From: a virus
Taxonomy: Duplodnaviria > Caudoviricetes
DNA length: 64,000 nucleotides
Reading direction: 5' to 3' (one strand)
IMG/VR virus record: IMGVR_UViG_3300011862_000001
Location: 172,910-236,909 of that record
Shown: piece after piece, positions 8,018-23,148 of the stretch
How the letters are laid out: each line of letters starts with the position of its first letter
Position numbering within the stretch: the stretch's first letter is position 1
Notes under the pieces: generated by a model
What the model saw: the letters and a program-made list of their open reading frames with translations, nothing else
Database searches by the model: none
What the model was told of the DNA's origin: nothing
Program-made: the position numbers and the translations under genes

Positions 8018-10225
8018 ATGCCGTACACACCTGATTTAGTGAAAACGGTTATTGATTCGCTTAACCGTAAAAACGTGGCGACGCTTGCAAAAGTAAAGAT
8101 TGACCCGGTCAACATTCAGTTGGTGTCGGTGGTCTATCGTGATGAAACCACCTTAGACGTGACCGTGGCCGGGAAAGGGCCGATTGCCAGCTATGGGCAA
8201 GTCACTGCTCAGGTAAAAAAGCAAAGCATCGCCAGCTATTTTACCGCCATCCCGGTCAGCAAGCTACCACCGCGCACCACGGTACATGCTTTGCTGCCGG
8301 ACCTTCAGCAGATACTGGGTCTCACATTCTTACCCCAAGACTTTGTTGACCTGCCGATTAACTGGCAAGACGGCCAAGCGGTCATCACCTTCCAAAGCAC
8401 ACCCACCAGTTTATTCTGGTACGGGACTGCCGACGTTACCGTCGTCAGTTCGGAAGTGGATATCGCGACCGTCTTTACCATTACCTCGCTTACGGTCAGC
8501 GCGAAGAGCTGCACCCGTGCGGAGTGGATAACGCAATTAGAAACCGCCGCTAAGCGGCTGGTTGATGAAAGCAAAATCACTGTCAGTGCGCCGATGACCT
8601 TAGCCGAAGCGGGGGTCACTAATGCCTCGTTCAACACCGTGATTCGTCTTACCGCCAAACCGAACAGCGGCTATACGGGCACCAAAGACATCTTCTATAA
8701 CCGGGTTGACCTCAACCAGTTTAAAGGACTGCCTACGGCGGTGCCGGATGACTTTACCGGTACGATCGTTGATGCGCTCGCCATTGATAACATCGGCATA
8801 CGACCGGTGCTGTCTTTAGACGAGCTGGACATGGGGCCCATTACTGGTGACTGGCCGAAGCAAGCGACCATCTCGGCTAAACCGGGCTCGTATAAAACGT
8901 TCGGTACAGCGGCGATATCCGTGATTCGCTACGGCGATAGCGTGCAAACGCTTACCATCACGGCGGCGACGGCGATGGAGTTTAACGCTGCGTACTGGAA
9001 ATCCTTGATAGATAACCGTGCACGTTGCGGACGGTTGTTGATGAACATCACGATAAACCAGAATATCTCCGTGTGGAATGATACCGTTAGCAACGCTACT
9101 CTGGAGCTCAAAGAGTTCCCACAGATTGGTGAGATAATCTGTACTATCGTTAACCGTGGCAACTTCTGTGGCCGAGGCGGCAACGGGGCGAGCTACGCCA
9201 CCCCTCTCGGTGGTGCCGATGGCGGGACGGCTATTTCAATTAGCGATAACTTCCGCGGCAAGCTTATCATCGATAACTACGGCACCATCGCCGGCGGCGG
9301 TGGAGGTGGCGAAATGTGTTTGATGGGCTCCTATGCAGTAAGCGGTGGGGGCGGTGCACCGCGTGGTACGTCCCCGGCTCCAGGACTCGGTACCTACCAA
9401 GCGACCAGTCAGAATGCTTCTGATACCTTCGGTGGCAACCCGTCGTTACTCACTTATAATGGGTCGGGTTACCGACAAGATTATGTCGGTGGTCGTGGGG
9501 GTGATATCGGTAAACCGGGTCAAGTCGCGCTGATGAACTCCTACAACACCCCCGGGGGTAATCTGCTATTTACCGGGAGCACGCTTGCAGGTTATTCCTT
9601 TAGGATACCAGGGCAACCCGGTAAAGCGATTGCCGGTAAGCTTGACAAAGTCACCTGGTTGAATAAAGGCACGGTGTTGCCGCCGGTGGTCGATGAGTAT
9701 CAGGAATTCTTAGCCTACCTCGAAACCTTGAGTGCCACCCGCTTAGGTAACACGGACGTCTTTAGCGCCTTTAACGGGAAAAGCACGGCGGTGGTAGTCG
9801 AGCTGGCGGGGTTTGTCAACGGGACGCGTACTGCACCGAGTACCAACTCAGGGGATTATCTGTACGGGGCTCCGTGGGGCGGTCCTTTCGCGCTGGACGA
9901 CACTCGCGCACTGGCGTTGTTGTGGCATTGTATGCCGAAGTTGGAGACGATGTTTGATAACTTCTTCCTTAACCGTAAAGTGTTGATAGAACTGGCCCCC
10001 GAAGCCATGGGTGCAGTAGGGTCTGACCTGCGCAACGCCCTTCAGTCACGATCGAATGGCTCGCAGGTTAAGCGGGGCAGCGTGGTGCGCTGCGTCTACT
10101 ACGATGCATTCCTCGGCAAGATGATGCAAACGAAACCGAAGACACTAGGTAACGACCAACCTTGGGTACGTCCACCGAAACTTCTCTCTGCGCTTAACGG
10201 CGAGCTCGACGGGTTTATTTCGTAA
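8018..10225 (+). CDS. Putative receptor-binding/tail fibre protein with gp38-like glycine-rich adhesin segment, cassette B gene 2
   Basis: NRGNFCGRGGNG...IDNYGTIAGGGGGG; colinear with 4545-6665. Confidence 0.7.
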   Translation: MPYTPDLVKTVIDSLNRKNVATLAKVKIDPVNIQLVSVVYRDETTLDVTVAGKGPIASYGQVTAQVKKQSIASYFTAIPVSKLPPRTTVHALLPDLQQILGLTFLPQDFVDLPINWQDGQAVITFQSTPTSLFWYGTADVTVVSSEVDIATVFTITSLTVSAKSCTRAEWITQLETAAKRLVDESKITVSAPMTLAEAGVTNASFNTVIRLTAKPNSGYTGTKDIFYNRVDLNQFKGLPTAVPDDFTGTIVDALAIDNIGIRPVLSLDELDMGPITGDWPKQATISAKPGSYKTFGTAAISVIRYGDSVQTLTITAATAMEFNAAYWKSLIDNRARCGRLLMNITINQNISVWNDTVSNATLELKEFPQIGEIICTIVNRGNFCGRGGNGASYATPLGGADGGTAISISDNFRGKLIIDNYGTIAGGGGGGEMCLMGSYAVSGGGGAPRGTSPAPGLGTYQATSQNASDTFGGNPSLLTYNGSGYRQDYVGGRGGDIGKPGQVALMNSYNTPGGNLLFTGSTLAGYSFRIPGQPGKAIAGKLDKVTWLNKGTVLPPVVDEYQEFLAYLETLSATRLGNTDVFSAFNGKSTAVVVELAGFVNGTRTAPSTNSGDYLYGAPWGGPFALDDTRALALLWHCMPKLETMFDNFFLNRKVLIELAPEAMGAVGSDLRNALQSRSNGSQVKRGSVVRCVYYDAFLGKMMQTKPKTLGNDQPWVRPPKLLSALNGELDGFIS

Positions 10226-12739: not shown

Positions 12740-13639
12740 ATGTCAATCACGTTAAGCTGGAAACAGCAACCCAGACAAACGTTAGATTCGATTGAAATTT
12801 ATCGTTTCGCTGATCCGCGTGCAACGCCTAACCCACTGGCATTGGGTACACCCCTTGCGGTGTTGCCGGGGGATGCTACAAGCTATGTGGATAACACGGT
12901 AGCCAACTATACGACGTACCAATATCGCATCGTGTCGGTTAAAGGCAGCGACAAGTCGATGGGCTTCCCGATTGTCCAGGGCTATTTCCCTCAGACCGGT
13001 CCCGGGCCACAAGAGCTGTTGCGTGGTGACTGGTACTGTGGGTATTTTGGCACGCTGTCGAACACCGAGTTCTTCCTCAGTGCTAACGAGTTTAATGGGT
13101 TATTCGGCAACGCAATATGGTCTTATAGTCCGCTGTTGTTCCACAAGTTTGTGTTTCGTGGAAAGATTCTCTTCATCCCTGACACGCAAACCGCACAAAA
13201 TACTCCATGGCGTACCTACGCCGCTGGCGTAATGTATGCCGTAGAGGGAAACGGTCCGCTTGTTCCTGTGGGCTATAATGGCGTTAGCCAGAGGAAGACG
13301 GTGGTTAAGAACGGCTACGAGTATATCGTACGTTTACCGTTACTGATGGAGGGTGCTTATAATGCGAGCTGGAACCAGCCGGTGAACTATAACTCTGGCG
13401 AATGGTATAACACCATGGGACGTCTGTACTGGATGACCACAGGCCTGCAACGCTTTAACGATCTGCGGTTAGCGGCAGGGGGTTCGCCTACCGGCGTAGG
13501 TTCTGTGTTATTTGCGAGCGCTGCCGACGCAGGGCGCAACTACTGGTACTGGAACCCGGCGGCACCGACCGCACCTGCGACAGTCGATGTGGATGCTAAC
13601 TGTAGCATTTTCCATGTCCTGGAACTGGTGTTGAGTTAA
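12740..13639 (+). CDS. Virion structural protein, FN3-like N-domain + GPG/GYFG domain
   Basis: LSWK..IYR..TSYVDNTV..TTYQY; GPGPQELLRG..GYFG..KF..GKILFIP. Confidence 0.65.
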   Translation: MSITLSWKQQPRQTLDSIEIYRFADPRATPNPLALGTPLAVLPGDATSYVDNTVANYTTYQYRIVSVKGSDKSMGFPIVQGYFPQTGPGPQELLRGDWYCGYFGTLSNTEFFLSANEFNGLFGNAIWSYSPLLFHKFVFRGKILFIPDTQTAQNTPWRTYAAGVMYAVEGNGPLVPVGYNGVSQRKTVVKNGYEYIVRLPLLMEGAYNASWNQPVNYNSGEWYNTMGRLYWMTTGLQRFNDLRLAAGGSPTGVGSVLFASAADAGRNYWYWNPAAPTAPATVDVDANCSIFHVLELVLS

Positions 13640-13646
13640 TCGTTAG

Positions 13647-13692
13647 AAAAAAATAAAGCTCTACTCCCTGAAGGGAGTAGAGGCTTTTCTTT
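13647..13692. terminator. Bidirectional terminator
   Basis: A run, CTCTACTCCC-TGAA-GGGAGTAGAG, T run, between convergent genes. Confidence 0.85.
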
Positions 13693-14156
13693 CATTTGCT
13701 GAGCATGGGCGGCGTTGGTGTCGGTGTGCACTGCAAGAACGTCATCCCGGTGCCTTCTCCAGTACGTCCATCAACAGACGAGTAGGAATAGGTCGGTGCT
13801 TTGGCGTTCACACCCCGGATACGATAATAACGGATACCGGTTGTGACATCGACGGCACCATCAATCTTACCGAGCAAGTCTTTATACAGTTGCGGAGACT
13901 CTACTTTCCCACCCGGGAAGGTTGCGACCCACGTCGAACCGTTGTCGATAACTGTGGCTGCGAAAGGCAGCAGTTGTAGCTTACCGAGTTGAGGCTGGAA
14001 GTGGGCAAATGTTTCTTGGGTAGCGCTGCACTGATAGACCGCAAAGGTCTCGGCGGTTTCCACAGGCACCGTGCCAAATTGACCCGCTTGATTCGGAGCC
14101 ATAGCACAACCTGCCAACAGTGCGGAGGCTAACACCGCAAACAAATACTTCACCAT
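13692..14156 (-). CDS. Lipoprotein of unknown function
   Basis: Signal peptide with lipobox LLAG-C; AAGGA RBS. Confidence 0.75.
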   Translation of the reverse strand: MVKYLFAVLASALLAGCAMAPNQAGQFGTVPVETAETFAVYQCSATQETFAHFQPQLGKLQLLPFAATVIDNGSTWVATFPGGKVESPQLYKDLLGKIDGAVDVTTGIRYYRIRGVNAKAPTYSYSSVDGRTGEGTGMTFLQCTPTPTPPMLSK

Positions 14157-16447: not shown

Positions 16448-16480
16448 AAAAAAAAAATAACAGTGGCCCGAAGGCCACTG
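16448..16480 (-). terminator. Terminator closing the radical SAM operon
   Basis: Minus strand CAGTGGCC-TTCG-GGCCACTG then TTA and a long T run. Confidence 0.9.
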
Positions 16481-16484
16481 AGGA

Positions 16485-17141
16485 TTACAACAGACCTTCG
16501 TCTTTTGCCAACTGCATCACTGCGGTAAAGTCACCTTGTTCGGCGAGCGTACGCAGACGTTGCTTTTTGACGTTGAGCGACATATGCAGGTCGTTATCAC
16601 GTTGGATAATTGCCGCATACAGACCTTTCACATCATCAATCGCAAACGGTTCAACCGGGCTGTTGGTGGCATCAATCCAGTACATCGGGTCAACCCCAGA
16701 CTGGATATAGCCGGTGAGTGCGGTGCGGGATTTCTCGTCAGCCTGGTAACGGTGACCAGCAAACTCGATATCCTGATAACGCAGCTCTGCATAGCGGGTG
16801 TTCATCGCTTGCATCACACGGTTAAACTCACGCCACAGGTGACCTAAGGTTGAGGTCAGCCCTTTGCGGATATCATCCAACGGCAGTTCCAACACGTCTT
16901 TGATAAACGCTTTGGTCTTTTCCATGGTGAACGCCGCTTCGGCATCAGAGAGGTCATGCCCTTTCAGCGCTTTCATCGCCTCTTTATCACTCATGCCGTT
17001 TAGCAGGTGATAATGCAAAAGGGTACAGAACCCTTGGCGCGTGGCGTCTTCAGTTCGCAGAATCCCGCTGTAGTTACCATGGCGGTCAATCGGGGTGCCA
17101 AACTCGAAGTAGCGACGCTTTATTTCGTCATTACTAAGCAT
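16485..17141 (-). CDS. DUF4376-like protein (tail-fibre-associated)
   Basis: C-terminal half: IEFAGHRYQADEKSR..L....WIDATN.. Confidence 0.65.
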   Translation of the reverse strand: MLSNDEIKRRYFEFGTPIDRHGNYSGILRTEDATRQGFCTLLHYHLLNGMSDKEAMKALKGHDLSDAEAAFTMEKTKAFIKDVLELPLDDIRKGLTSTLGHLWREFNRVMQAMNTRYAELRYQDIEFAGHRYQADEKSRTALTGYIQSGVDPMYWIDATNSPVEPFAIDDVKGLYAAIIQRDNDLHMSLNVKKQRLRTLAEQGDFTAVMQLAKDEGLL

Positions 17142-17677
17142 TCAGTTGCTCCTACTAAGCCCAGGTCCATCGCCAAGTCAAAGTCGAACAGCTGGAAGTC
17201 AGTGTAGATATCCTGGCCCCAGACGATGTTCATTTGCTCAGCGTGGTCCTGATTTTGTTCCATATAAGCCCGCGTCAAGTGCATCTCTTCCCCGAAGGCG
17301 TCATACGCTTCGTGGGAACGCACGGCACGTACCCGAAGCTCAGGCCAGCTTAACGCCAGACCAATCAGGTTTTCCGTGTCGAGATTACGCGTAGAGCGGC
17401 GTAAGATTTCGATTTTGTGGCGCGGGAAGTCAGTGACACGCGCTTCAAAGCCCGGGTTACGTTTTTCCACTTCGACCACCGAGTTATGGTGTTCTTCGAC
17501 ACCGTCCAACGTCAGTATCACGTTTAAGCCAAACCGGATACACAGTTTAACGACGTCGTCGGTAAAGGCATCGGGCGCTACCAGCGCATGGGCGTTGTAC
17601 AAGCCGTGCTTGTGCAAAAACGCCGCCACCAGGTGGTGACTACGCTTGGTAAAATTGTGTATCAGAAAGGCTTTCAT
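17120..17677 (-). CDS. Accessory protein of the radical SAM operon
   Basis: GGAG RBS before MKAFLIH; overlaps both neighbours; LTLDGVEEHH resembles an rSAM barrel motif. Confidence 0.65.
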   Translation of the reverse strand: MKAFLIHNFTKRSHHLVAAFLHKHGLYNAHALVAPDAFTDDVVKLCIRFGLNVILTLDGVEEHHNSVVEVEKRNPGFEARVTDFPRHKIEILRRSTRNLDTENLIGLALSWPELRVRAVRSHEAYDAFGEEMHLTRAYMEQNQDHAEQMNIVWGQDIYTDFQLFDFDLAMDLGLVGATECLVMTK

Positions 17678-18980
17678 TAGCAGTGGCTCCAGTTTGGGTC
17701 TTTTTCGCTGCTTCTGCACGTTGACGTACGCAAGACACGCAGTAGCATTGGGTTTTATCGTTTAAGTCGGTATAGCGTACGGTACCAGTTTTCTGGTAGA
17801 AGTATTCCGCGACTAACAGCTTCGCCGTCGTCCATCCACACTGGCGACGTTCAGCGTGGTACTCTTTACGGGCTTCAATCTCACCGTCACCGTTTTCGTA
17901 CGAGGCCGCAGCACAGCTGCCGCACGCGTGTTTCATCGGACACCCTAAGCAGGTCTCTGGGTAGTTGGTGTACTGATTTTGAATCTCATTCAGTAACTTA
18001 CCACCGTCGATGTTAACGATTTCCCGGCCACGCAGTTCAGCGACCGCCTGACGGGTCGTTACGGTAGACATAAAACGGTTGCAGCCGTAAATCTTACGAT
18101 CAAAGCCCAGGCAGGTCATGTGGGATACTGTACCACAGAAAGGACGCACACGCTCCGGGTTCAAACGGGTGGCTTCGTCGTCGAGTAACTTCTGACGCCA
18201 GTCCGGGTCCCAGGTCGCCATAAAGTCCAGACCATCCGGGAAGATGTGAGTCAGACGGTTACGCGGGTCATGCTGCAAGCCTTTGTCAAACCAGTAGTCA
18301 ATCACATCCATCATCTGGTTGGCAATCGACAACGCCGACTGACGTGGCAGCACGTCTTCGTACGTTACGTTACCCGAGATGGTGCCACCGCCGGTGACGT
18401 CAATCAGGTGCTTCATGCTCTCGGCATAACGCGGCAGGGTTTCACTGGTGAAGGTCGCTTTGATACCAAGCTCCAGGATACCCACCGACTTCAGGTAGTT
18501 GTAGCCGCGCATCGCTTTCTCATACGAGCCTTCACGGCTTACCGTAAAGATACGATAGCGGTCGTGCACTTCTGGCAAGCCATCAATCGACACCCCGATA
18601 GACAGCTTGTCGCGCCAGCGTTCGATAATCTGCTGGTTCAGTGGACGGTCAAACAACGTACCGTTAGTGGAGATAGAAAAGATAACGTCGCGATTATCGC
18701 GCTTGGCTAACTCTTCTGCCGCCTCAAAGACACCGAGCAGGATTTTCGGTTGCATCATCGGCTCACCACCGATAATGTCGATAATCACTTCCACGTTCTC
18801 TAAGTGACGGTCACGGTCAAAACACGCATGGATAAAGTCTACCGCGTCATCGACTTTGTTGTTACGCGGGTACTTACGCTCGTAGCAGTATTCACAGTCG
18901 AGGTTGCACGACAGGTTGGTGACCACCTGATAAGTCTTGGTGATTTTGGGTGTTACCACCGGCATTTTATTATCGCGCAT
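17640..18980 (-). CDS. Radical SAM/SPASM-type peptide or protein maturase
   Basis: CNLDCEYC, IIGGEP, STNGT, GVSIDG; auxiliary Cys FCG..C..IYGC..CLGC..ACGSC..C. Confidence 0.9.
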   Translation of the reverse strand: MRDNKMPVVTPKITKTYQVVTNLSCNLDCEYCYERKYPRNNKVDDAVDFIHACFDRDRHLENVEVIIDIIGGEPMMQPKILLGVFEAAEELAKRDNRDVIFSISTNGTLFDRPLNQQIIERWRDKLSIGVSIDGLPEVHDRYRIFTVSREGSYEKAMRGYNYLKSVGILELGIKATFTSETLPRYAESMKHLIDVTGGGTISGNVTYEDVLPRQSALSIANQMMDVIDYWFDKGLQHDPRNRLTHIFPDGLDFMATWDPDWRQKLLDDEATRLNPERVRPFCGTVSHMTCLGFDRKIYGCNRFMSTVTTRQAVAELRGREIVNIDGGKLLNEIQNQYTNYPETCLGCPMKHACGSCAAASYENGDGEIEARKEYHAERRQCGWTTAKLLVAEYFYQKTGTVRYTDLNDKTQCYCVSCVRQRAEAAKKTQTGATANESLSDTQFYQA

Positions 18981-19875
18981 TGCTTAGCCCCACTTGAATT
19001 ACACGATTGATGTAACGATACGCGTCCAGACCGATTACTTCAGCCAGACGGTTACAGCCCGAGTCCAACGCATCGACCGCGTTCTCACTTTGCCCAAAGG
19101 TGGCATCCGATTTCAACCACACCAGGTCACTACAGGCATCACAGTGATGAGTAAAGAACTTGTTCACCGACAATGCGATATGATGACGGTTAATACGGTT
19201 CAGGTTCATCAGCTGTTCATGCATACGGTTATAGCCGTACATAAAGTTCATAACGTGGTCAGGCGACAAGGGCTTCGGCATGAAGTTGTCAAACATCAAA
19301 CGGAACCCCTGAAGCTTGTAGTGGTACATCGCCTCGTGTAACTTCAGCACGTCAAGGTACCAGTATTTGTTCCCTAACTGCTCACGAGTCACCACCGACC
19401 ACAGCTGCACGTTATCGAGCGCATGCAGCACCTCAAACACTTCAAAACGGCGCTCTTCAGCGACGCGCAGTAACGGACGTTCGGTTTCAGCATAGCCATC
19501 AAACGACACGAATATCCGATCAAACTGCGCCAGCACCGGAAGCTGCTCCAGCGTCAAACGTAGCGCGTTGGTGTACATCTCATGTTGCAGGTGCGGGTAG
19601 CGTTCTTTCACCTCCGCCAGAAACTCCCGGATCTTCGGGAATGCCAGTAAGGGCTCACCCCCCGTCCAGTTGATTTGACGAATGGTGGGGTACTGCTCGA
19701 GCAACGCGAACAGTTTTTCTTTTTGAATATCACGACCGCTGTCTTTGATATCCATGTAGCCCGCACCACCACAGAAGCTACAACTTAAGTTGCATTTCGA
19801 TGTGGTCACGATCGACAACTCGGCAGGAGTTGCCGTCGGGTCGCGACGAATGGCCGACACAGCTTCTTCATTCAT
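18970..19875 (-). CDS. Radical SAM protein (short, no full SPASM domain)
   Basis: CNLSCSFC, WTGGEPLL, YTNA, VSFDG; C-terminal CDAC..GC. Confidence 0.88.
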   Translation of the reverse strand: MNEEAVSAIRRDPTATPAELSIVTTSKCNLSCSFCGGAGYMDIKDSGRDIQKEKLFALLEQYPTIRQINWTGGEPLLAFPKIREFLAEVKERYPHLQHEMYTNALRLTLEQLPVLAQFDRIFVSFDGYAETERPLLRVAEERRFEVFEVLHALDNVQLWSVVTREQLGNKYWYLDVLKLHEAMYHYKLQGFRLMFDNFMPKPLSPDHVMNFMYGYNRMHEQLMNLNRINRHHIALSVNKFFTHHCDACSDLVWLKSDATFGQSENAVDALDSGCNRLAEVIGLDAYRYINRVIQVGLSNAR

Positions 19876-19896
19876 TGCAGGTTTACTCCAGTTTTT

Positions 19897-20781
19897 TTAA
19901 AAGGTCAGCGCAAACAACGGATCGTCTTTGATGTCCACACCCGTTTCTAAGATGAACGGTGAGTGGTAAGCGTCCAGGATAGTGTTCAAGACTGTCTGAC
20001 GGTCGTTGATACGCTTTAAATCCGCAAGCGTGACGCTACGCGCAAGAATTTGCGAGACAGCCGCTTGTTCTTCTTTACTGAGGGTAACTTTGTTCAGTAA
20101 GAAGCACACCACTTTCGCCAAATCGGCTTCGGTTCCAGGCGCTTCACCAAACTTCCACTGCACCAGGTACTGCATCCACGGTTTGCGGATACGCTTGGTG
20201 ATTTCGTGTTTATCGGTAAGTCCCACAAACTTCTGCTCAGCGTGGTGCCAGACGAATTTGTAGCTGTAGGCCAGCAGGTCGAGCATATGGTGAATGCCGA
20301 GCTCTTCGTAGCCTTCAATCGGGTAATAGGTTTCGAGACCGCTGTAGTCCACGGTGTCTGCCGGTACCTGGGAATACCAGGTCGGGTGTGAGCTTGGGTA
20401 GTCCCAGCTCCATTCACGACGCACCATCGGCTTTAACCCAGATTGGGTAAACGGCGTCAGCAACATTTCCAAGTCGGCGGTTTGGTTTAACATCCCGTCA
20501 CTCAGGAAATACTTACGGTCGACGAACTTGCCAGTGATTTCCAGTTCGCCGGTGTTCAGATGGATATGTTCTACGGTGTGACCAAGCAGCGTAAAGCTGT
20601 TCAGCACTTCATAGTTCTTCGGGTCCACCAGTTCACGACCACGCACCTTTGGCCATTCGCCAGGCAGCTGCGTAATCAAGCGAATTTGGTCTAACAGGTG
20701 ATACTTCACGCTGTCGTAAATGCTGATATGCAGTGGGAAGTTTTGCGTTGTGCGAAACGCCAAGTGCAAATCGTTCTTCAT
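19897..20781 (-). CDS. Accessory protein of the radical SAM operon, unknown function
   Basis: 294 aa ORF, GGGGA RBS, co-oriented and tightly packed. Confidence 0.7.
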   Translation of the reverse strand: MKNDLHLAFRTTQNFPLHISIYDSVKYHLLDQIRLITQLPGEWPKVRGRELVDPKNYEVLNSFTLLGHTVEHIHLNTGELEITGKFVDRKYFLSDGMLNQTADLEMLLTPFTQSGLKPMVRREWSWDYPSSHPTWYSQVPADTVDYSGLETYYPIEGYEELGIHHMLDLLAYSYKFVWHHAEQKFVGLTDKHEITKRIRKPWMQYLVQWKFGEAPGTEADLAKVVCFLLNKVTLSKEEQAAVSQILARSVTLADLKRINDRQTVLNTILDAYHSPFILETGVDIKDDPLFALTF

Positions 20782-20793
20782 GAAAAGTTCCCC

Positions 20794-21000
20794 TTAGAGG
20801 TTGCCTGCGCCATGGCTACAGCCGCCGCTGCATGTCCAGCTACAGGAACCGCCACAGTTATAATGCCATAAGGGCAGTCCGGCGAGGTTGTTGGTGTAGC
20901 TTACCGTTCCGCGTGTTGCAATGTATTCGTTGGCGTCATCGGTCTTGATGTACTTCTCAACCAGGACCATCCGGTTACGAATGTCTTTGAGTGATACCAC
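20794..21000 (-). CDS. Short Cys-repeat protein 3 (4 Cys)
   Basis: GTG start after GGGGG RBS; leader SLKDIRNR..NNLAG; core CGGSCSWTCSGGC. Confidence 0.75.
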   Translation of the reverse strand: MVSLKDIRNRMVLVEKYIKTDDANEYIATRGTVSYTNNLAGLPLWHYNCGGSCSWTCSGGCSHGAGNL

Positions 21001-21048
21001 ATTAACCCCCAAATGTGTAAAAAGGTCGCGTGAGGGAAAGGTCCGCGC

Positions 21049-21444
21049 TTATCGCGACGGGCCGGAACACCCAGAACACCCAGAACACGATGAGCTGCAC
21101 GTCGAGCTACAGCCGGTACACGCACTGCTACAGCCTGCTGAACAACCACCAGAACACCCTCCCGAACAACCGGTACAGGTTCCTGAACAGCCAGACGTAC
21201 AACTCGCAGAACAACTCGCCCCACACGTCCCTGAGGCTGAACCTGAGCACCCACCTGAGCATGAAGAACACGTCCAACTGCACGTTCCCCCACAGTCGTA
21301 GTGCGTCCGGTCAAAACCGGCAAAGCGGTTAGCGTTATTGGTGGCTTTCCCACGGATATAATTCTGCACCCCATTGACATCACGCAATGCGGTGGCGTCA
21401 ATCGCATTAATGCGATCGCGAATATTCTTTAATAAAATTGCCAT
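21049..21444 (-). CDS. Cys-repeat protein 2 (20 Cys)
   Basis: AGAGGA RBS before MAILLKNIRDR; Ser/Gly/Thr-rich CxxxC/CxxC core. Confidence 0.85.
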   Translation of the reverse strand: MAILLKNIRDRINAIDATALRDVNGVQNYIRGKATNNANRFAGFDRTHYDCGGTCSWTCSSCSGGCSGSASGTCGASCSASCTSGCSGTCTGCSGGCSGGCSAGCSSACTGCSSTCSSSCSGCSGCSGPSR

Positions 21445-21455
21445 GCGTGTTTCCT

Positions 21456-21839
21456 CTACGGTCCAGAACAACCGGAACACCCGGTGCAACTGGATGAGCA
21501 GCTACCGGAACACCCGGAACAGCTTTTTGAACACCCGCCGGAGCAACTGCCGGAGCAACCCGAACAGCCGGAGCATCCCGTAGAGCAACCCCCTGTACAA
21601 CTTCCCGTACAGGTCGAGGTACACGTCCCCGAACAACTCGTACAGCTTGCAGAACATCCGTTAGAACACGACCAGCTACACGACCCGTTACAATCCAGTC
21701 CCGGTTGCGACCACCCGGCGAAGCTGTCTTGTGCGTTATTCGCTTGCACAGCCACCTGGTAATCAACCCGAGGGCCAGTAGCGTATGTGTTTTCCACGTT
21801 CTGCAAACGGTCGCGTATGTTTTTAACTGAGATAACCAT
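21456..21839 (-). CDS. Cys-repeat protein 1 (21 Cys)
   Basis: AAGGA RBS; MVISVKNIRDR leader; CxxxC/CxxC core ending CSGCSGP. Confidence 0.85.
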   Translation of the reverse strand: MVISVKNIRDRLQNVENTYATGPRVDYQVAVQANNAQDSFAGWSQPGLDCNGSCSWSCSNGCSASCTSCSGTCTSTCTGSCTGGCSTGCSGCSGCSGSCSGGCSKSCSGCSGSCSSSCTGCSGCSGP

Positions 21840-21852
21840 ACGTTTCCTTTGT

Positions 21853-21892
21853 TAATAAAAAGTGAGGACTCTGCCATATAGACAGGTCCTCA
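21853..21892 (-). terminator. Terminator-like hairpin upstream of the Cys-repeat genes, with TATG at the loop
   Basis: TGAGGAC-CTGTC-TATAT-GGCAG-A-GTCCTCA-CTTTTTATT. Confidence 0.65.
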
Positions 21893-21902
21893 TGTAATTA
21901 GA

Positions 21903-23102
21903 CTAACGAGTACCGGCTTCTGCCTGTACGTCGTCACGCGTGGTCAGGCTGGCGTTGACGTGAACGTTGGCCTGAATCACGCCACCGTACTGTTTGTGCA
22001 GGTATTGAGTGTGTGGGTCAACGGCTGCCGTGTGGTTAGCCAGACTCTGCGACACGCCAGAGATACCGGCGGTGTTGTTAGCGACCTGTTGACGCAGTTG
22101 CGCCAAGTCGGCTGCCACATCGCGGAATTTCTGCTCAGTCGCAGCACCCTGAGTTTCCAGGTTAGTGACCCGTTGCGCCAAGGCAGCAATTACCTGATTC
22201 TGGTCGGTGACCATCTTCTGGAGTTGCAGCACCAGGTCGTTAAGGTTCGCTAACTGAAGCGCCATACGCTGGTAGTTCTGCGCAACCGAGTTCAGCTGGT
22301 CATTCCAAGACGCCAGGGCTGAAACGATAGCATCGATACGTCCGTTAATCGCGGTGTCCGCTGCTTTCAAATTCCCGATGTCGGAGAGCACTGCATCAAT
22401 CGCGGTTTGTACCTGAGCAATCAGTGCTCGGATTTCCGTTTCGGTTAAGCCGTTGGCCTGATGAATGTCCAGACTGTGAACGTTACCCTGGGCGTTGATG
22501 TGGGTTTGAAGCGCAGTCATAAACTGCGTTTTCATGTCGGTAATCAACGTGGCGAGCTGTTCAAGCTGAAGCGATTGCCCGGCATTAATCACATCACGGA
22601 TACCGGCAATTTCGGTAATGACGTATTCAAAGCCAAACAAGTCACCCAAGTCTTTAAACATCGGCGCACCCGGGAAGGTGTCCGGCACATTACGCAGGTT
22701 CTTAAAGTCAATGATTTTGTCTTCAAGATTGGCATCAGCCAAGCCCTGCTTAATCGCGGCAATGTTCGCTGACTGCGGACCCCCAACCACTTGCGCTACC
22801 GCAATCAGGTCGGTTGGTACAGAGGAATCGGTTACCACCACCGCCATACAGATTTCGCGGTTGTTTGCCATCTTCTGATAAACGGGGTGGGTCAGGATAA
22901 GCTCGTAGTGGGTACCGCGCACTAAGTTCGTGTTCGGGGCACTGGCAGGACGCAAGCGGAACGTGTCTGCATAGAACGGCCCTGCGGGAAACGCAAAGGC
23001 ACGGTTAACTTTACCACCGCCCAAAACGATAGGTACCGAGACCGCATTCGAGGTCATCGTCCCTTTCAAATCAAGCGGGTACTGATAAATGATATCTGGC
23101 AT
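21903..23102 (-). CDS. Virion structural/tail fibre protein with long coiled coil
   Basis: N-terminal GPFY..L.RG.HY module shared with the giant fibres; heptad-rich C-half; H...PH.QY motif; start at MPDII (GGGAG RBS). Confidence 0.7.
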   Translation of the reverse strand: MPDIIYQYPLDLKGTMTSNAVSVPIVLGGGKVNRAFAFPAGPFYADTFRLRPASAPNTNLVRGTHYELILTHPVYQKMANNREICMAVVVTDSSVPTDLIAVAQVVGGPQSANIAAIKQGLADANLEDKIIDFKNLRNVPDTFPGAPMFKDLGDLFGFEYVITEIAGIRDVINAGQSLQLEQLATLITDMKTQFMTALQTHINAQGNVHSLDIHQANGLTETEIRALIAQVQTAIDAVLSDIGNLKAADTAINGRIDAIVSALASWNDQLNSVAQNYQRMALQLANLNDLVLQLQKMVTDQNQVIAALAQRVTNLETQGAATEQKFRDVAADLAQLRQQVANNTAGISGVSQSLANHTAAVDPHTQYLHKQYGGVIQANVHVNASLTTRDDVQAEAGTR

Positions 23103-23148
23103 AGCCAAACTCCCTTAGCAGGACTTCCTTGTCCCTTATCGTGAATGG

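Follow-up and report, generated by a model that had tools for sequence, protein, structure and literature searches.

A conserved cassette of radical SAM enzymes and cysteine-ladder proteins behind the tail-fibre genes of an SPN3US-like jumbo phage: a putative fibre-maturation module

Overview of the cassette

The window, namely the whole 64,000-nucleotide stretch of DNA that was analysed, is the end part of an SPN3US/phiEaH2-like jumbo phage whose complete genome measures 237 kb. Within the window, eight genes on the minus strand (the strand of all features described here) span positions 16485-21839, where they are closely packed between two strong hairpins, immediately behind four paralogous fibre genes. 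In the direction of transcription, the cassette encodes three Cys-rich proteins (Cys1, Cys2 and Cys3), a 294-aa protein, a short radical SAM (rSAM) enzyme, a SPASM-type rSAM enzyme, a 185-aa accessory protein and a DUF4376 protein, with intergenic gaps of 11-48 nt and overlaps of 11, 38 and 22 nt among the last four genes. The cassette is kept throughout the SPN3US/phiEaH2-like clade, and no publication on it was found in the literature.

Both flanking hairpins are supported by RNA folding. The terminator-like hairpin with its U-run at 21853-21892, between the gene for the 401-aa fibre and Cys1, has a folding energy of -18.8 kcal/mol (z -4.8; 0 of 200 shuffles as stable), and we infer that it could act as an attenuator lowering cassette expression. 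Downstream, an intrinsic terminator at 16448-16480 comprises an 8-bp GC stem, a UUCG loop and a U10 tract (-15.5 kcal/mol, z -4.7). The layout described in the initial annotation, with eight co-oriented, tightly packed genes, a hairpin at either end and four tail-fibre genes in front, is therefore present in full: the preceding genes (401, 1690, 1352 and 1017 aa) have an N-terminal domain in common and are homologous to SPN3US gp167-170, which are virion proteins and baseplate/tail-fibre candidates. The reported lack of a peptidase, exporter or immunity gene also holds, since NCBIfam, Pfam and PHROG profiles detect no such family in the cassette or in the neighbouring genes. No RRE/PqqD-like element is seen in the cassette or its flanks, yet one is not excluded, as the model of the 294-aa protein matches no solved fold.

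Cys-ladder proteins and their N-terminal domain

Cys1 (21456-21839; 127 aa, 21 Cys) consists of an N-terminal domain (N-domain) of approximately 49 residues, followed by an entry motif, C.G.CSW.C, and a ladder with Cys at a spacing of 3-4 residues. Its paralogue Cys2 (21049-21444; 131 aa, 20 Cys) starts with an ATG behind a GAGGA ribosome-binding site, while Cys3 (20794-21000; 68 aa, GTG start) has the same N-domain and entry motif as Cys1 and Cys2 with a count of only four Cys. All three match phrog_6085 (3e-44, 1e-48 and 8e-26, respectively). The Cys spacing in the ladders is nearly only 4 or 3 residues, and the ladder cores are composed of C/S/G/T/A, with no Asp or Glu. All Cys columns of Cys1 are invariant in an alignment of nine orthologues, and orthologues of the Cys ORFs retain frame, length and every Cys column down to 47% identity; this conservation marks the Cys ORFs as real genes. 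Between lineages, the two long paralogues co-vary in their number of Cys (16/16, about 20/21, 31/33-35), although the ladders of one locus, L056, are unequal (17/55), and matched ladder lengths are thus absent from some other lineages. The short third paralogue is kept in L007-L011, L015, L018, L019 and SPN3US.

Structure prediction folds the three N-domains as a parallel, in-register trimer with an ipSAE of 0.78, compared with 0.01 for the best control; of the complexes with solved structures, 58 of 80 attain the score mark applied here, as do 2 of 110 mismatched pairs. At least 53% of the contacts agree between runs, and the partner pLDDT is at least 57. Since close paralogues can also pass this complex test, a homotrimer and a heterotrimer are not distinguishable.

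Radical SAM enzymes

The short enzyme (18970-19875; 301 aa; PF04055 at 3.6e-14) carries the CX3CX2C motif at C28/C32/C35 and has just two or three conserved Cys in its C-terminal part, including the invariant C248 and C274. The 446-aa enzyme (17640-18980) has the corresponding motif at C25/C29/C32 and seven further SPASM-type Cys (282, 300, 344, 347, 353, 356 and 381), which meet the seven-Cys pattern for two auxiliary clusters (C..C, CX2CX5CX2-3C, C). The CX3CX2C motifs of both enzymes and the seven SPASM-type Cys are invariant in 12 of 12 homologues. With this motif and PF04055 scores of 53.7 and 50.2 bits (cut-off 29.5), both enzymes meet the definition of the radical SAM superfamily, whereas the Pfam SPASM model PF13186 has no match at E <= 0.1 in either of them.

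The TIGR04114 and TIGR04115 models for CXXX-repeat substrates and maturases, named in the initial annotation, both exist, and comparison with them gives a divided answer. TIGR04115 is indeed the top family of the 446-aa enzyme (123.6 bits; 119.4 in the genome search), tied with PapB (NF047865; 122.9 bits), and the QhpD family TIGR03906 is matched at 1e-16; however, the cut-offs of 350 bits for TIGR04115 and 340 bits for PapB are not approached, and Cys1 likewise remains below that of TIGR04114 (16.2 versus 20 bits). The only NCBIfam match of Cys2 is TIGR04117 (15.3 bits, cut-off 50), and Cys3 matches no NCBIfam model. The nearest solved chain to the 446-aa enzyme is 5wgg (3.7e-14), which is CteB of the SCIFF maturase family. 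By sequence comparison, TIGR04115, PapB and CteB are the nearest relatives of this enzyme, yet its scores are far under their cut-offs.

Accessory proteins

The 185-aa protein (17120-17677) is encoded by a 199-aa ORF in which the PHROG match begins at residue 15. Its gene lies always directly behind that of the SPASM-type enzyme, which it overlaps here by 38 nt. The AF2 model (pLDDT 88) has an rSAM-like fold: Atlas features (0.93, TM 0.62) are all rSAM, and the VIA matches are to a pyruvate-formate-lyase-activating-enzyme domain (Z 9.6), SuiB (8.5) and 5wgg (7.8). As the CX3CX2C motif is absent from its sequence, the protein is, according to the model, a cluster-less partial TIM barrel that is closest to the radical-SAM core, i.e. 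a pseudo-rSAM.

The 294-aa core accessory protein (19897-20781; phrog_8030) has only 21 representatives among 1.8 billion. Its AF2 model is confident (pLDDT 91), but structure searches with it return no match to any solved fold, such that the fold is unknown. Homologues are present in L013-L019, and the co-occurrence with rSAM enzymes extends even to lambda-like phages.

The last gene encodes a 218-aa protein (16485-17141) that satisfies the family cut-off of PF14301 (DUF4376) over residues 112-198 (2.9e-10; 41 bits, cut-off 25). The DUF4376 domain is found in the experimentally characterised tail-fibre chaperones of the Alteromonas phages V22 (gp27) and A5 (gp9) (PMC7289586, PMC10579305), and chaperones of this type are described as capping fibre tips transiently (PMC10579305). 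By analogy, with the function taken from these papers, the cassette protein is probably a tail-fibre chaperone.

Ladder domains are fused to tail fibres in other phages

Bona fide tail-fibre proteins of unrelated phages have the same Cys-ladder domain, together with the junction motif L.G.....Y.C.G.CSW.C, as their C-terminus. The phrog_6085 profile that recognizes Cys1-3 finds fibre-protein C-termini in L013, L038 and L039 as well, and the proteins of L038 and L039 match tail-fibre PHROGs in addition. At 31-35% identity, the nearest relatives of the rSAM outside the jumbo phages adjoin ladder-ending proteins with strong tail-fibre PHROG matches, as in L036 (phrog_327 at 1e-54, phrog_1780 at 1e-51). 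Two lambda-like tail modules (L013 and L021) encode a J-like protein and then a fibre protein ending in a ladder; in L013 this fibre bears phage-tail repeats (a sub-threshold PTR match) and the rSAM genes lie behind the 294-aa homologue, and in L021 the rSAM gene directly follows the ladder-ending fibre gene. L020 represents an SU10-like structural module, the proteins P0102 and P0107 have fibre-type repeats followed by the common junction motif, and in a gut siphophage (L006) the cassette resides between the tape-measure and fibre genes, with an rSAM that scores 300.6 bits against TIGR04115 and a target that passes TIGR04114.

Overall, 78 of the 80 viral loci that encode a related rSAM have a ladder ORF within 7 kb of it and on the same strand. 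The DUF4376 gene is limited to the SPN3US-like clade and L019 and is missing from more distant cassettes.

These arrangements bear on whether the Cys proteins might be leader-plus-core precursors of a free RiPP-like product, the cores of which would act off the virion as a metal chelator, a lysis-released antimicrobial or an intracellular effector. The cluster-like layout, in which small genes for Cys-rich proteins with a conserved N-terminus precede rSAM/SPASM enzymes, would suit such a product, as would the best family matches of the enzymes, which are peptide maturases, and the occurrence of related repeats in cellular proteins (P0105 and P0106) that are lipoprotein-like and apparently secreted. 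However, the prediction for the supposed leader is a parallel trimer, and this segment is the counterpart of the coiled-coil and junction segment of the fused tail-fibre proteins; phages of at least four unrelated types have the cassette inside a tail module; its last gene encodes a domain of characterised fibre chaperones, and neither a peptidase, exporter or immunity gene nor a recognisable RRE fold has been found in or beside it. We consider a free product distinctly unlikely; rather, the Cys proteins have the appearance of fibre ends that were split off, and not that of RiPP precursors.

Fibre neighbours and the SPN3US virion

The SPN3US virion list of 86 proteins includes gp167-173 and lacks gp161-165, in line with helper proteins that stay outside the virion. 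Among the latter, gp161 is the homologue of the DUF4376 protein, and among the former, gp167 is the homologue of the 401-aa fibre (21903-23108; phrog_2163 at 2.6e-97), which has a long coiled coil without a large C-terminal domain. Our best guess, by inference only, is that this fibre is a docking partner for the Cys modules; an HMM of the Cys-protein N-domain has no significant match to it (E 0.42). In the SPN3US annotation all three Cys genes are missing, with SPN3US_0166 being out of frame, and because of this the published proteomics was unable to detect the Cys proteins, a gap that kept them outside all proteomic searches.

No Cys protein having been reported in SPN3US virions, albeit from a database without these genes, the Cys proteins might alternatively be transient assembly factors, which as scaffolds or caps would template the trimerisation of fibres and be missing from the finished virion, in keeping with the transient fibre-tip role of DUF4376-type chaperones. 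In other phages, however, the ladder is covalently within the fibre polypeptide and cannot leave, and to spend several enzymes on a discarded component would make little sense, such that we regard this role as very unlikely.

Model for ladder maturation

The fibre fusions, the linkage at the viral loci, the predicted trimer and the DUF4376 protein all favour a structural fibre part over a secreted antibiotic, as the initial annotation had inferred. Although no experiment supports it as yet, we find it reasonably likely that the cassette serves as a self-contained unit for the maturation of a tail-fibre part, and not of a secreted peptide, through modification by the enzymes encoded alongside it. 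The three Cys proteins would be the free-standing counterpart of the C-terminal ladder domain that is fused to fibres elsewhere. Their N-domains of ~48 residues would assemble into a parallel, in-register trimer, maybe a heterotrimer of the three paralogues, and in the reducing cytoplasm the SPASM-type rSAM would introduce covalent modifications into the (C-S/T-x-x)n ladders, with the 185-aa cluster-less protein, the short rSAM and the 294-aa protein as its partners. If the closest characterised enzymes are a guide, the likeliest reaction appears to be Cys-sulfur-to-carbon thioether cross-linking, yielding a redox-insensitive, protease-resistant rod or knob. The DUF4376 protein may serve as a transient fibre chaperone, and the enzymes and helpers would remain outside the virion, with the ladder module residing on a fibre, for which the tip-less 401-aa fibre is the best attachment guess. 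The substrate relationship, virion incorporation and docking site of the Cys proteins are all inferred. A more specific form of this model, in which two long in-register chains and a short one make up a heterotrimeric fibre tip and the phage rSAMs staple its Cys ladder with a series of thioether bridges, we put forward as a tentative possibility only.

Thioether cross-linking of the ladders is likewise an inference by analogy and has not been demonstrated. PapB uses Asp acceptors, and characterised ranthipeptide enzymes use Asp/Glu/Asn. The ladder lacks the Asp acceptors used by PapB, and consequently the acceptor residue and the chemistry remain open. It is conceivable that the ladder is structural but undergoes other rSAM chemistry, such as Cys or Ser/Thr modification, epimerisation, methylation or preparation for metal binding, with its stability arising mainly from metal or from post-lysis disulfides. 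Besides the absence of these Asp/Glu/Asn acceptors from the ladder, the two to four different rSAMs per cassette across the loci suggest several chemical steps, and the enzymes are well under every curated family cut-off. On the other hand, the nearest families and solved chain (PapB, the SCIFF maturase family/CteB, QhpD-type) form Cys-thioethers and Cys itself is the invariant feature of the substrate, and we therefore rate such other chemistry as unlikely. Cys3, with 68 aa and four Cys, constitutes a natural minimal substrate, which makes the question directly testable.

If the thioether model is correct, the radical-SAM chemistry of RiPPs has been co-opted for the construction of one part of a virion, providing covalent, redox-independent cross-links in a reducing cytoplasm where disulfides cannot form, and adding a principle to the architecture of tail fibres and receptor-binding proteins. 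An enzyme family that is catalogued and yet unstudied would gain a function, and there would be an explanation for the conserved eight-gene block in SPN3US-like jumbo phages, which are models and biocontrol candidates. A stapled heterotrimeric tip would, in addition, be the first case of enzymatic cross-linking in a structural virion protein, and would suggest that the CXXX-repeat RiPP family serves for the most part to mature phage fibres.

Comparison with known systems

The cassette most resembles the CXXX-repeat system (TIGR04115 with targets TIGR04114 and TIGR04117), in which an rSAM/SPASM enzyme adjoins proteins with Cys at every fourth residue and for which no literature was found beyond genome cataloguing. 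Target adjacency is met here, with three ladder genes 1-3 kb upstream of the 446-aa enzyme. Unlike that system, the cassette adds a second rSAM and the 185-aa rSAM-like, 294-aa and DUF4376 proteins, none of which match its NCBIfam models, and its targets have a fibre-like N-domain that is predicted to form trimers.

With PapB (freyrasin) and CteB (5wgg/5why), the 446-aa enzyme shares a radical-SAM core with a SPASM extension and two auxiliary-cluster Cys sets, and the substrates share Cys-richness with repeated short spacing. In contrast, the enzyme has no N-terminal RRE region, its CX3CX2C motif starting at residue 25, and it does not qualify as PapB-type by score, nor do the ladder cores offer Asp/Glu for CX3D-type motifs. 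Moreover, the substrates are proteins of 68-131 aa with a structural N-domain rather than cleaved, exported leader peptides.

The DUF4376 protein resembles V22 gp27 and A5 gp9 in its C-terminal domain and in being encoded downstream of a fibre gene, but its gene lies behind modification enzymes and not directly behind the fibre gene.

QhpD is an rSAM/SPASM enzyme that introduces Cys-to-Asp/Glu thioethers into QhpC, a protein subunit of quinohemoprotein amine dehydrogenase that contains three such cross-links. While its sequence relationship to the 446-aa enzyme is distant, and the cassette differs in having up to 21 Cys in a regular ladder and a virus-particle setting, QhpD provides a SPASM precedent for the cross-linking of a protein that is kept in a larger assembly rather than released as a free peptide.

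Conservation and boundaries of the cassette

The eight-gene cassette occupies positions 21839 to 16485 on the minus strand, within the final 64 kb of a virus record that is complete at 236,909 bp and has terminal repeats, and is best explained, on comparative evidence only, as a putative module for the radical SAM (rSAM) maturation of a cysteine-ladder part of the tail fibre. Neighbouring genes are separated by gaps of 11–48 nt, with overlaps of 11, 38 and 22 nt among the last four. The hairpins that the initial annotation placed at both ends of the unit are indeed stable: the free energy is −18.8 kcal/mol (z −4.8) for the upstream and −15.5 kcal/mol (z −4.7) for the downstream structure, and each is followed by a U-run. 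The region 16448–21892 shares ~76% DNA identity with the Erwinia jumbo phages Caitlin, phiEaH2 and Asesino, and a homologous cassette is found in SPN3US, SEGD1, CR5, Kwan, Wellington and other members of the clade. A literature search found no publication describing the module in SPN3US-like phages; the module is real, conserved and unpublished.

Upstream of the cassette are four paralogous genes (401, 1690, 1352 and 1017 aa) with an N-terminal domain common to all four, whose SPN3US homologues, gp167–170, are virion proteins and candidates for baseplate or tail-fibre components (PMC5694885). Downstream lie a GH108-type endolysin gene and a DUF1353 ‘tail assembly-like’ gene, which we place outside the unit because both are inverted in phiEaH2-type genomes. 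Near the endolysin gene, a 154-aa ORF (13692–14156, minus strand) matches phrog_9559, of unknown function, and begins with a lipoprotein-type signal and a lipobox (..LLAGC); it may encode a phage lipoprotein, such as an exclusion protein or one resembling a spanin.

The cysteine-ladder proteins

Cys1, Cys2 and Cys3 are 127, 131 and 68 aa long and contain 21, 20 and 4 cysteines, respectively. In each, an N-domain of ~48 residues is followed by the fixed entry motif C.G.CSW.C and then by a ladder, whose Cys-to-Cys spacing is nearly always 4 or 3 and whose intervening residues are almost only S, T, G and A. Orthologues down to 47% identity keep the reading frame, the protein length and all Cys columns; judged by sequence conservation, these are real genes, and they form orthologous groups older than the divergence of the SPN3US-like clade. 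In GenBank records the genes are often absent or called in the wrong frame. Indeed, none of the three is annotated in SPN3US (JN641803; L003), where they are located at 9001–9390, 9404–9805 and 9809–10027, and the annotated SPN3US_0166 (9477–9812) covers the Cys2 region in another frame. Thus, proteomics based on the SPN3US annotation could not have detected the products. A profile of Cys1 retrieved no solved relative from the PDB sequences, and some ladder proteins carry the precomputed family assignment PF27846.

The two long paralogues contain 21/20 cysteines in the window (at 21049–21839), phiEaH2, Caitlin, SPN3US and the phage locus L011, 21/21 in CR5, 21/23 in Kwan, and 19/21, 21/22, 16/16, 31/33 and 31/35 in loci L019, L017, L016, L015 and L018, respectively, while the third paralogue has a constant 4–5 across these lineages. 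In L015 and L018, the additional rungs of both long paralogues sit at roughly matching points of the ladder. Since the counts track each other and the paralogues are orthologous across these phages, the comparison suggests that the two long chains may work in register, and the same tracking underlies the idea of a heterotrimer. We regard this as a lead rather than a result, since the independent length classes number only about three and the rule fails in other lineages (17/55 in L056).

The N-domains of Cys1, Cys2 and Cys3 are predicted to form a parallel, in-register three-chain assembly (ipSAE score 0.78, compared with 0.01 for the best control), with contacts agreeing to at least 53% between runs and partner pLDDT of at least 57. 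In calibration, 58 of 80 solved complexes and 2 of 110 mismatched pairs passed the threshold for this score. The model supports, but does not show, binding of the N-domains as a trimer; the prediction was run as a heterotrimer only, and close paralogues can pass, so that hetero- and homotrimers cannot be separated. When an HMM of the N-domain was compared with every ORF of the window, the best non-self match was the upstream 401-aa fibre, at a non-significant E-value of 0.42, and a coiled-coil motif common to the two is thus not supported.

The radical SAM enzymes and their accessory proteins

Both rSAM genes match PF04055. In the 446-aa enzyme (17640–18980), C25, C29 and C32 are invariant, as are seven C-terminal cysteines in SPASM spacing. 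Its best NCBIfam matches, TIGR04115 at 123.6 bits and PapB at 122.9 bits, fall short of the cut-offs (350 and 340, respectively), and it qualifies for no curated family. The closest solved chain is 5wgg, the SCIFF thioether synthase CteB. On the basis of these three matches, we read the enzyme as a SPASM maturase of the Cys-thioether-forming type, the chemistry itself being an inference by analogy. Beyond the SPASM motif, residues 412–417 form a further CxCxxC triad, present in 7–8 of 12 homologues, all of them closer relatives, which may represent an additional metal or cluster site. In the 301-aa enzyme, the radical-SAM triad is accompanied by two invariant C-terminal cysteines.

The gene for the 185-aa protein overlaps the end of the SPASM gene, and its product lacks a cluster motif. 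The confident model (pLDDT 88) is a partial TIM barrel, for which the best structural matches are radical-SAM cores, namely a pyruvate-formate-lyase-activating-enzyme domain (Z 9.6), SuiB (Z 8.5) and 5wgg (Z 7.8), although these lie only slightly above generic TIM barrels, which Foldseek puts first. An Atlas feature search gave 0.93, with every match in the rSAM family, whereas BLASTP against the two rSAMs found nothing significant; the likeness is visible only in structure and language-model features. In every related cassette possessing it, the gene directly follows that of a SPASM rSAM, and we read the product, from its model, as a putative pseudo-rSAM partner subunit. The related cassettes L015 (3492–11239), L018 (1–10215) and L013 (8306–11134) have three or four intact rSAM genes, whereas the window has two together with the cluster-less protein; in L015 and L018, the pseudo-rSAM comes after a second SPASM enzyme.

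The family of the 294-aa protein is very small, with just 21 representatives in 1.8 billion, and it accompanies rSAMs even into lambda-like phages. The model of the protein is also confident (pLDDT 91), and has no detectable known fold: Foldseek found no PDB match at E ≤ 1e-3, the best Z in a wide VIA-align search was only 4.1, Atlas structure comparison reached TM ≤ 0.33, and BFVD returned only the Asesino orthologue. Weak tail-protein leads from the Atlas feature search (0.90) do not allow a function to be assigned. The accessory proteins of a distant cassette, that of the gut siphophage L006, have no sequence similarity to the 294-aa or 185-aa proteins.

Partial rSAM matches in Salmonella SPFM phages were considered as gene disruption and rejected as a database artefact. 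Relative to SPN3US, the SPFM5 record (LR535903.1) contains 60-nt blocks in reversed order, with the strand of each block unchanged, which looks like a reversal of FASTA line order. In SPFM records this scrambles proteins into 20-aa blocks in reverse order, as in P0080 from SPFM20, and accounts for the odd matches in SPFM5; it is probably also behind those in SPFM6, 7, 14 and 20, for which there is no DNA-level check.

Association of ladders with tail fibres

Whether the search was for Cys1 relatives of greater length or for remote relatives of the rSAM, it repeatedly gave proteins with a tail-fibre N-terminal part and a ladder C-terminus, joined by the same motif (L.G.....Y.C.G.CSW.C); P0102, P0103 and P0107 are fibre proteins ending in a ladder. 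In L013, a 258-aa ladder protein with phage-tail repeats follows a lambda-J-like gene and precedes a homologue of the 294-aa protein and three rSAMs, and L021 has the order J-like gene, ladder fibre, rSAM. L020 is an SU10-like structural module, the ladder proteins of L036, L038 and L039 have tail-fibre PHROG matches (strongest 1e-54), and in L006 the interval between the tape-measure and fibre genes contains a ladder protein and an enzyme that comes near TIGR04115 (300.6 bits). Downstream of the rSAMs in the lambda-like tail module of L013, a 180-aa protein (12876–13418) contains a thrombospondin type 1 domain (PF19030, 4.9e-13), which is unusual for a phage.

The initial annotation proposed RiPP-type chemistry on a structural fibre part, an idea that would have been undermined had homologous rSAMs commonly occurred without Cys-repeat genes. 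This was not observed: among IMG/VR loci with relatives of the SPASM enzyme, down to ~24% identity, 78 of 80 have a same-strand ORF within 7 kb with at least 7 cysteines at a spacing of 3–4 residues, and of the two remaining loci, one is truncated by a contig end. The last gene of the unit carries DUF4376, as had been noted, a domain also present in fibre chaperones of the Alteromonas phages V22 and A5 (PMC7289586, PMC10579305). The SPN3US homologues of the enzymes, accessory proteins and DUF4376 protein (gp161–165) are absent from the 86 virion proteins, among which gp167–173 are present; this absence fits assembly factors. A free RiPP product would be the alternative, yet neither the peptidase, exporter and immunity genes that the initial annotation had found missing nor a signal peptide were found in the cassette or its flanks. 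Modification of a fibre part is favoured over such a product by fusion, linkage, the predicted trimer, the chaperone, the non-virion accessory proteins and the lack of RiPP hallmarks, all of it comparative evidence.

Proposed mechanism and comparison with known systems

We suggest that the cassette would be transcribed late, together with or just after the fibre genes, and that the Cys proteins would trimerise via their N-domains. Modification of the ladder would follow, carried out by the short rSAM, the 294-aa protein and the SPASM enzyme paired with its pseudo-rSAM subunit; successive thioethers from Cys sulfur to carbon are the most likely product, and would make a rigid rod independent of oxidising conditions. 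The DUF4376 chaperone may aid folding or attachment and then depart. The ladder module would end on a fibre, for which the obvious candidate is the adjacent coiled-coil 401-aa fibre, which lacks a large C-terminal domain; our analysis found no link between the two, as the N-domain HMM comparison indicates. Inference alone supports the choice of substrate, the type of chemistry, the presence of the module in virions and the identity of the docking partner.

Among catalogued systems, the TIGR04115/TIGR04114 ‘CXXX-repeat’ pair comes closest, and our literature search found no experimental paper on it. Among characterised enzymes, PapB and CteB have the nearest chemistry. In QhpD/QhpC, a SPASM enzyme cross-links a protein that remains in a complex, which provides a precedent. 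Compared with these systems, the window cassette has a second rSAM, a pseudo-rSAM, the 294-aa protein and a chaperone as extra parts, its substrates are fibre-like proteins predicted to be trimeric, and it has a fixed place in tail modules.
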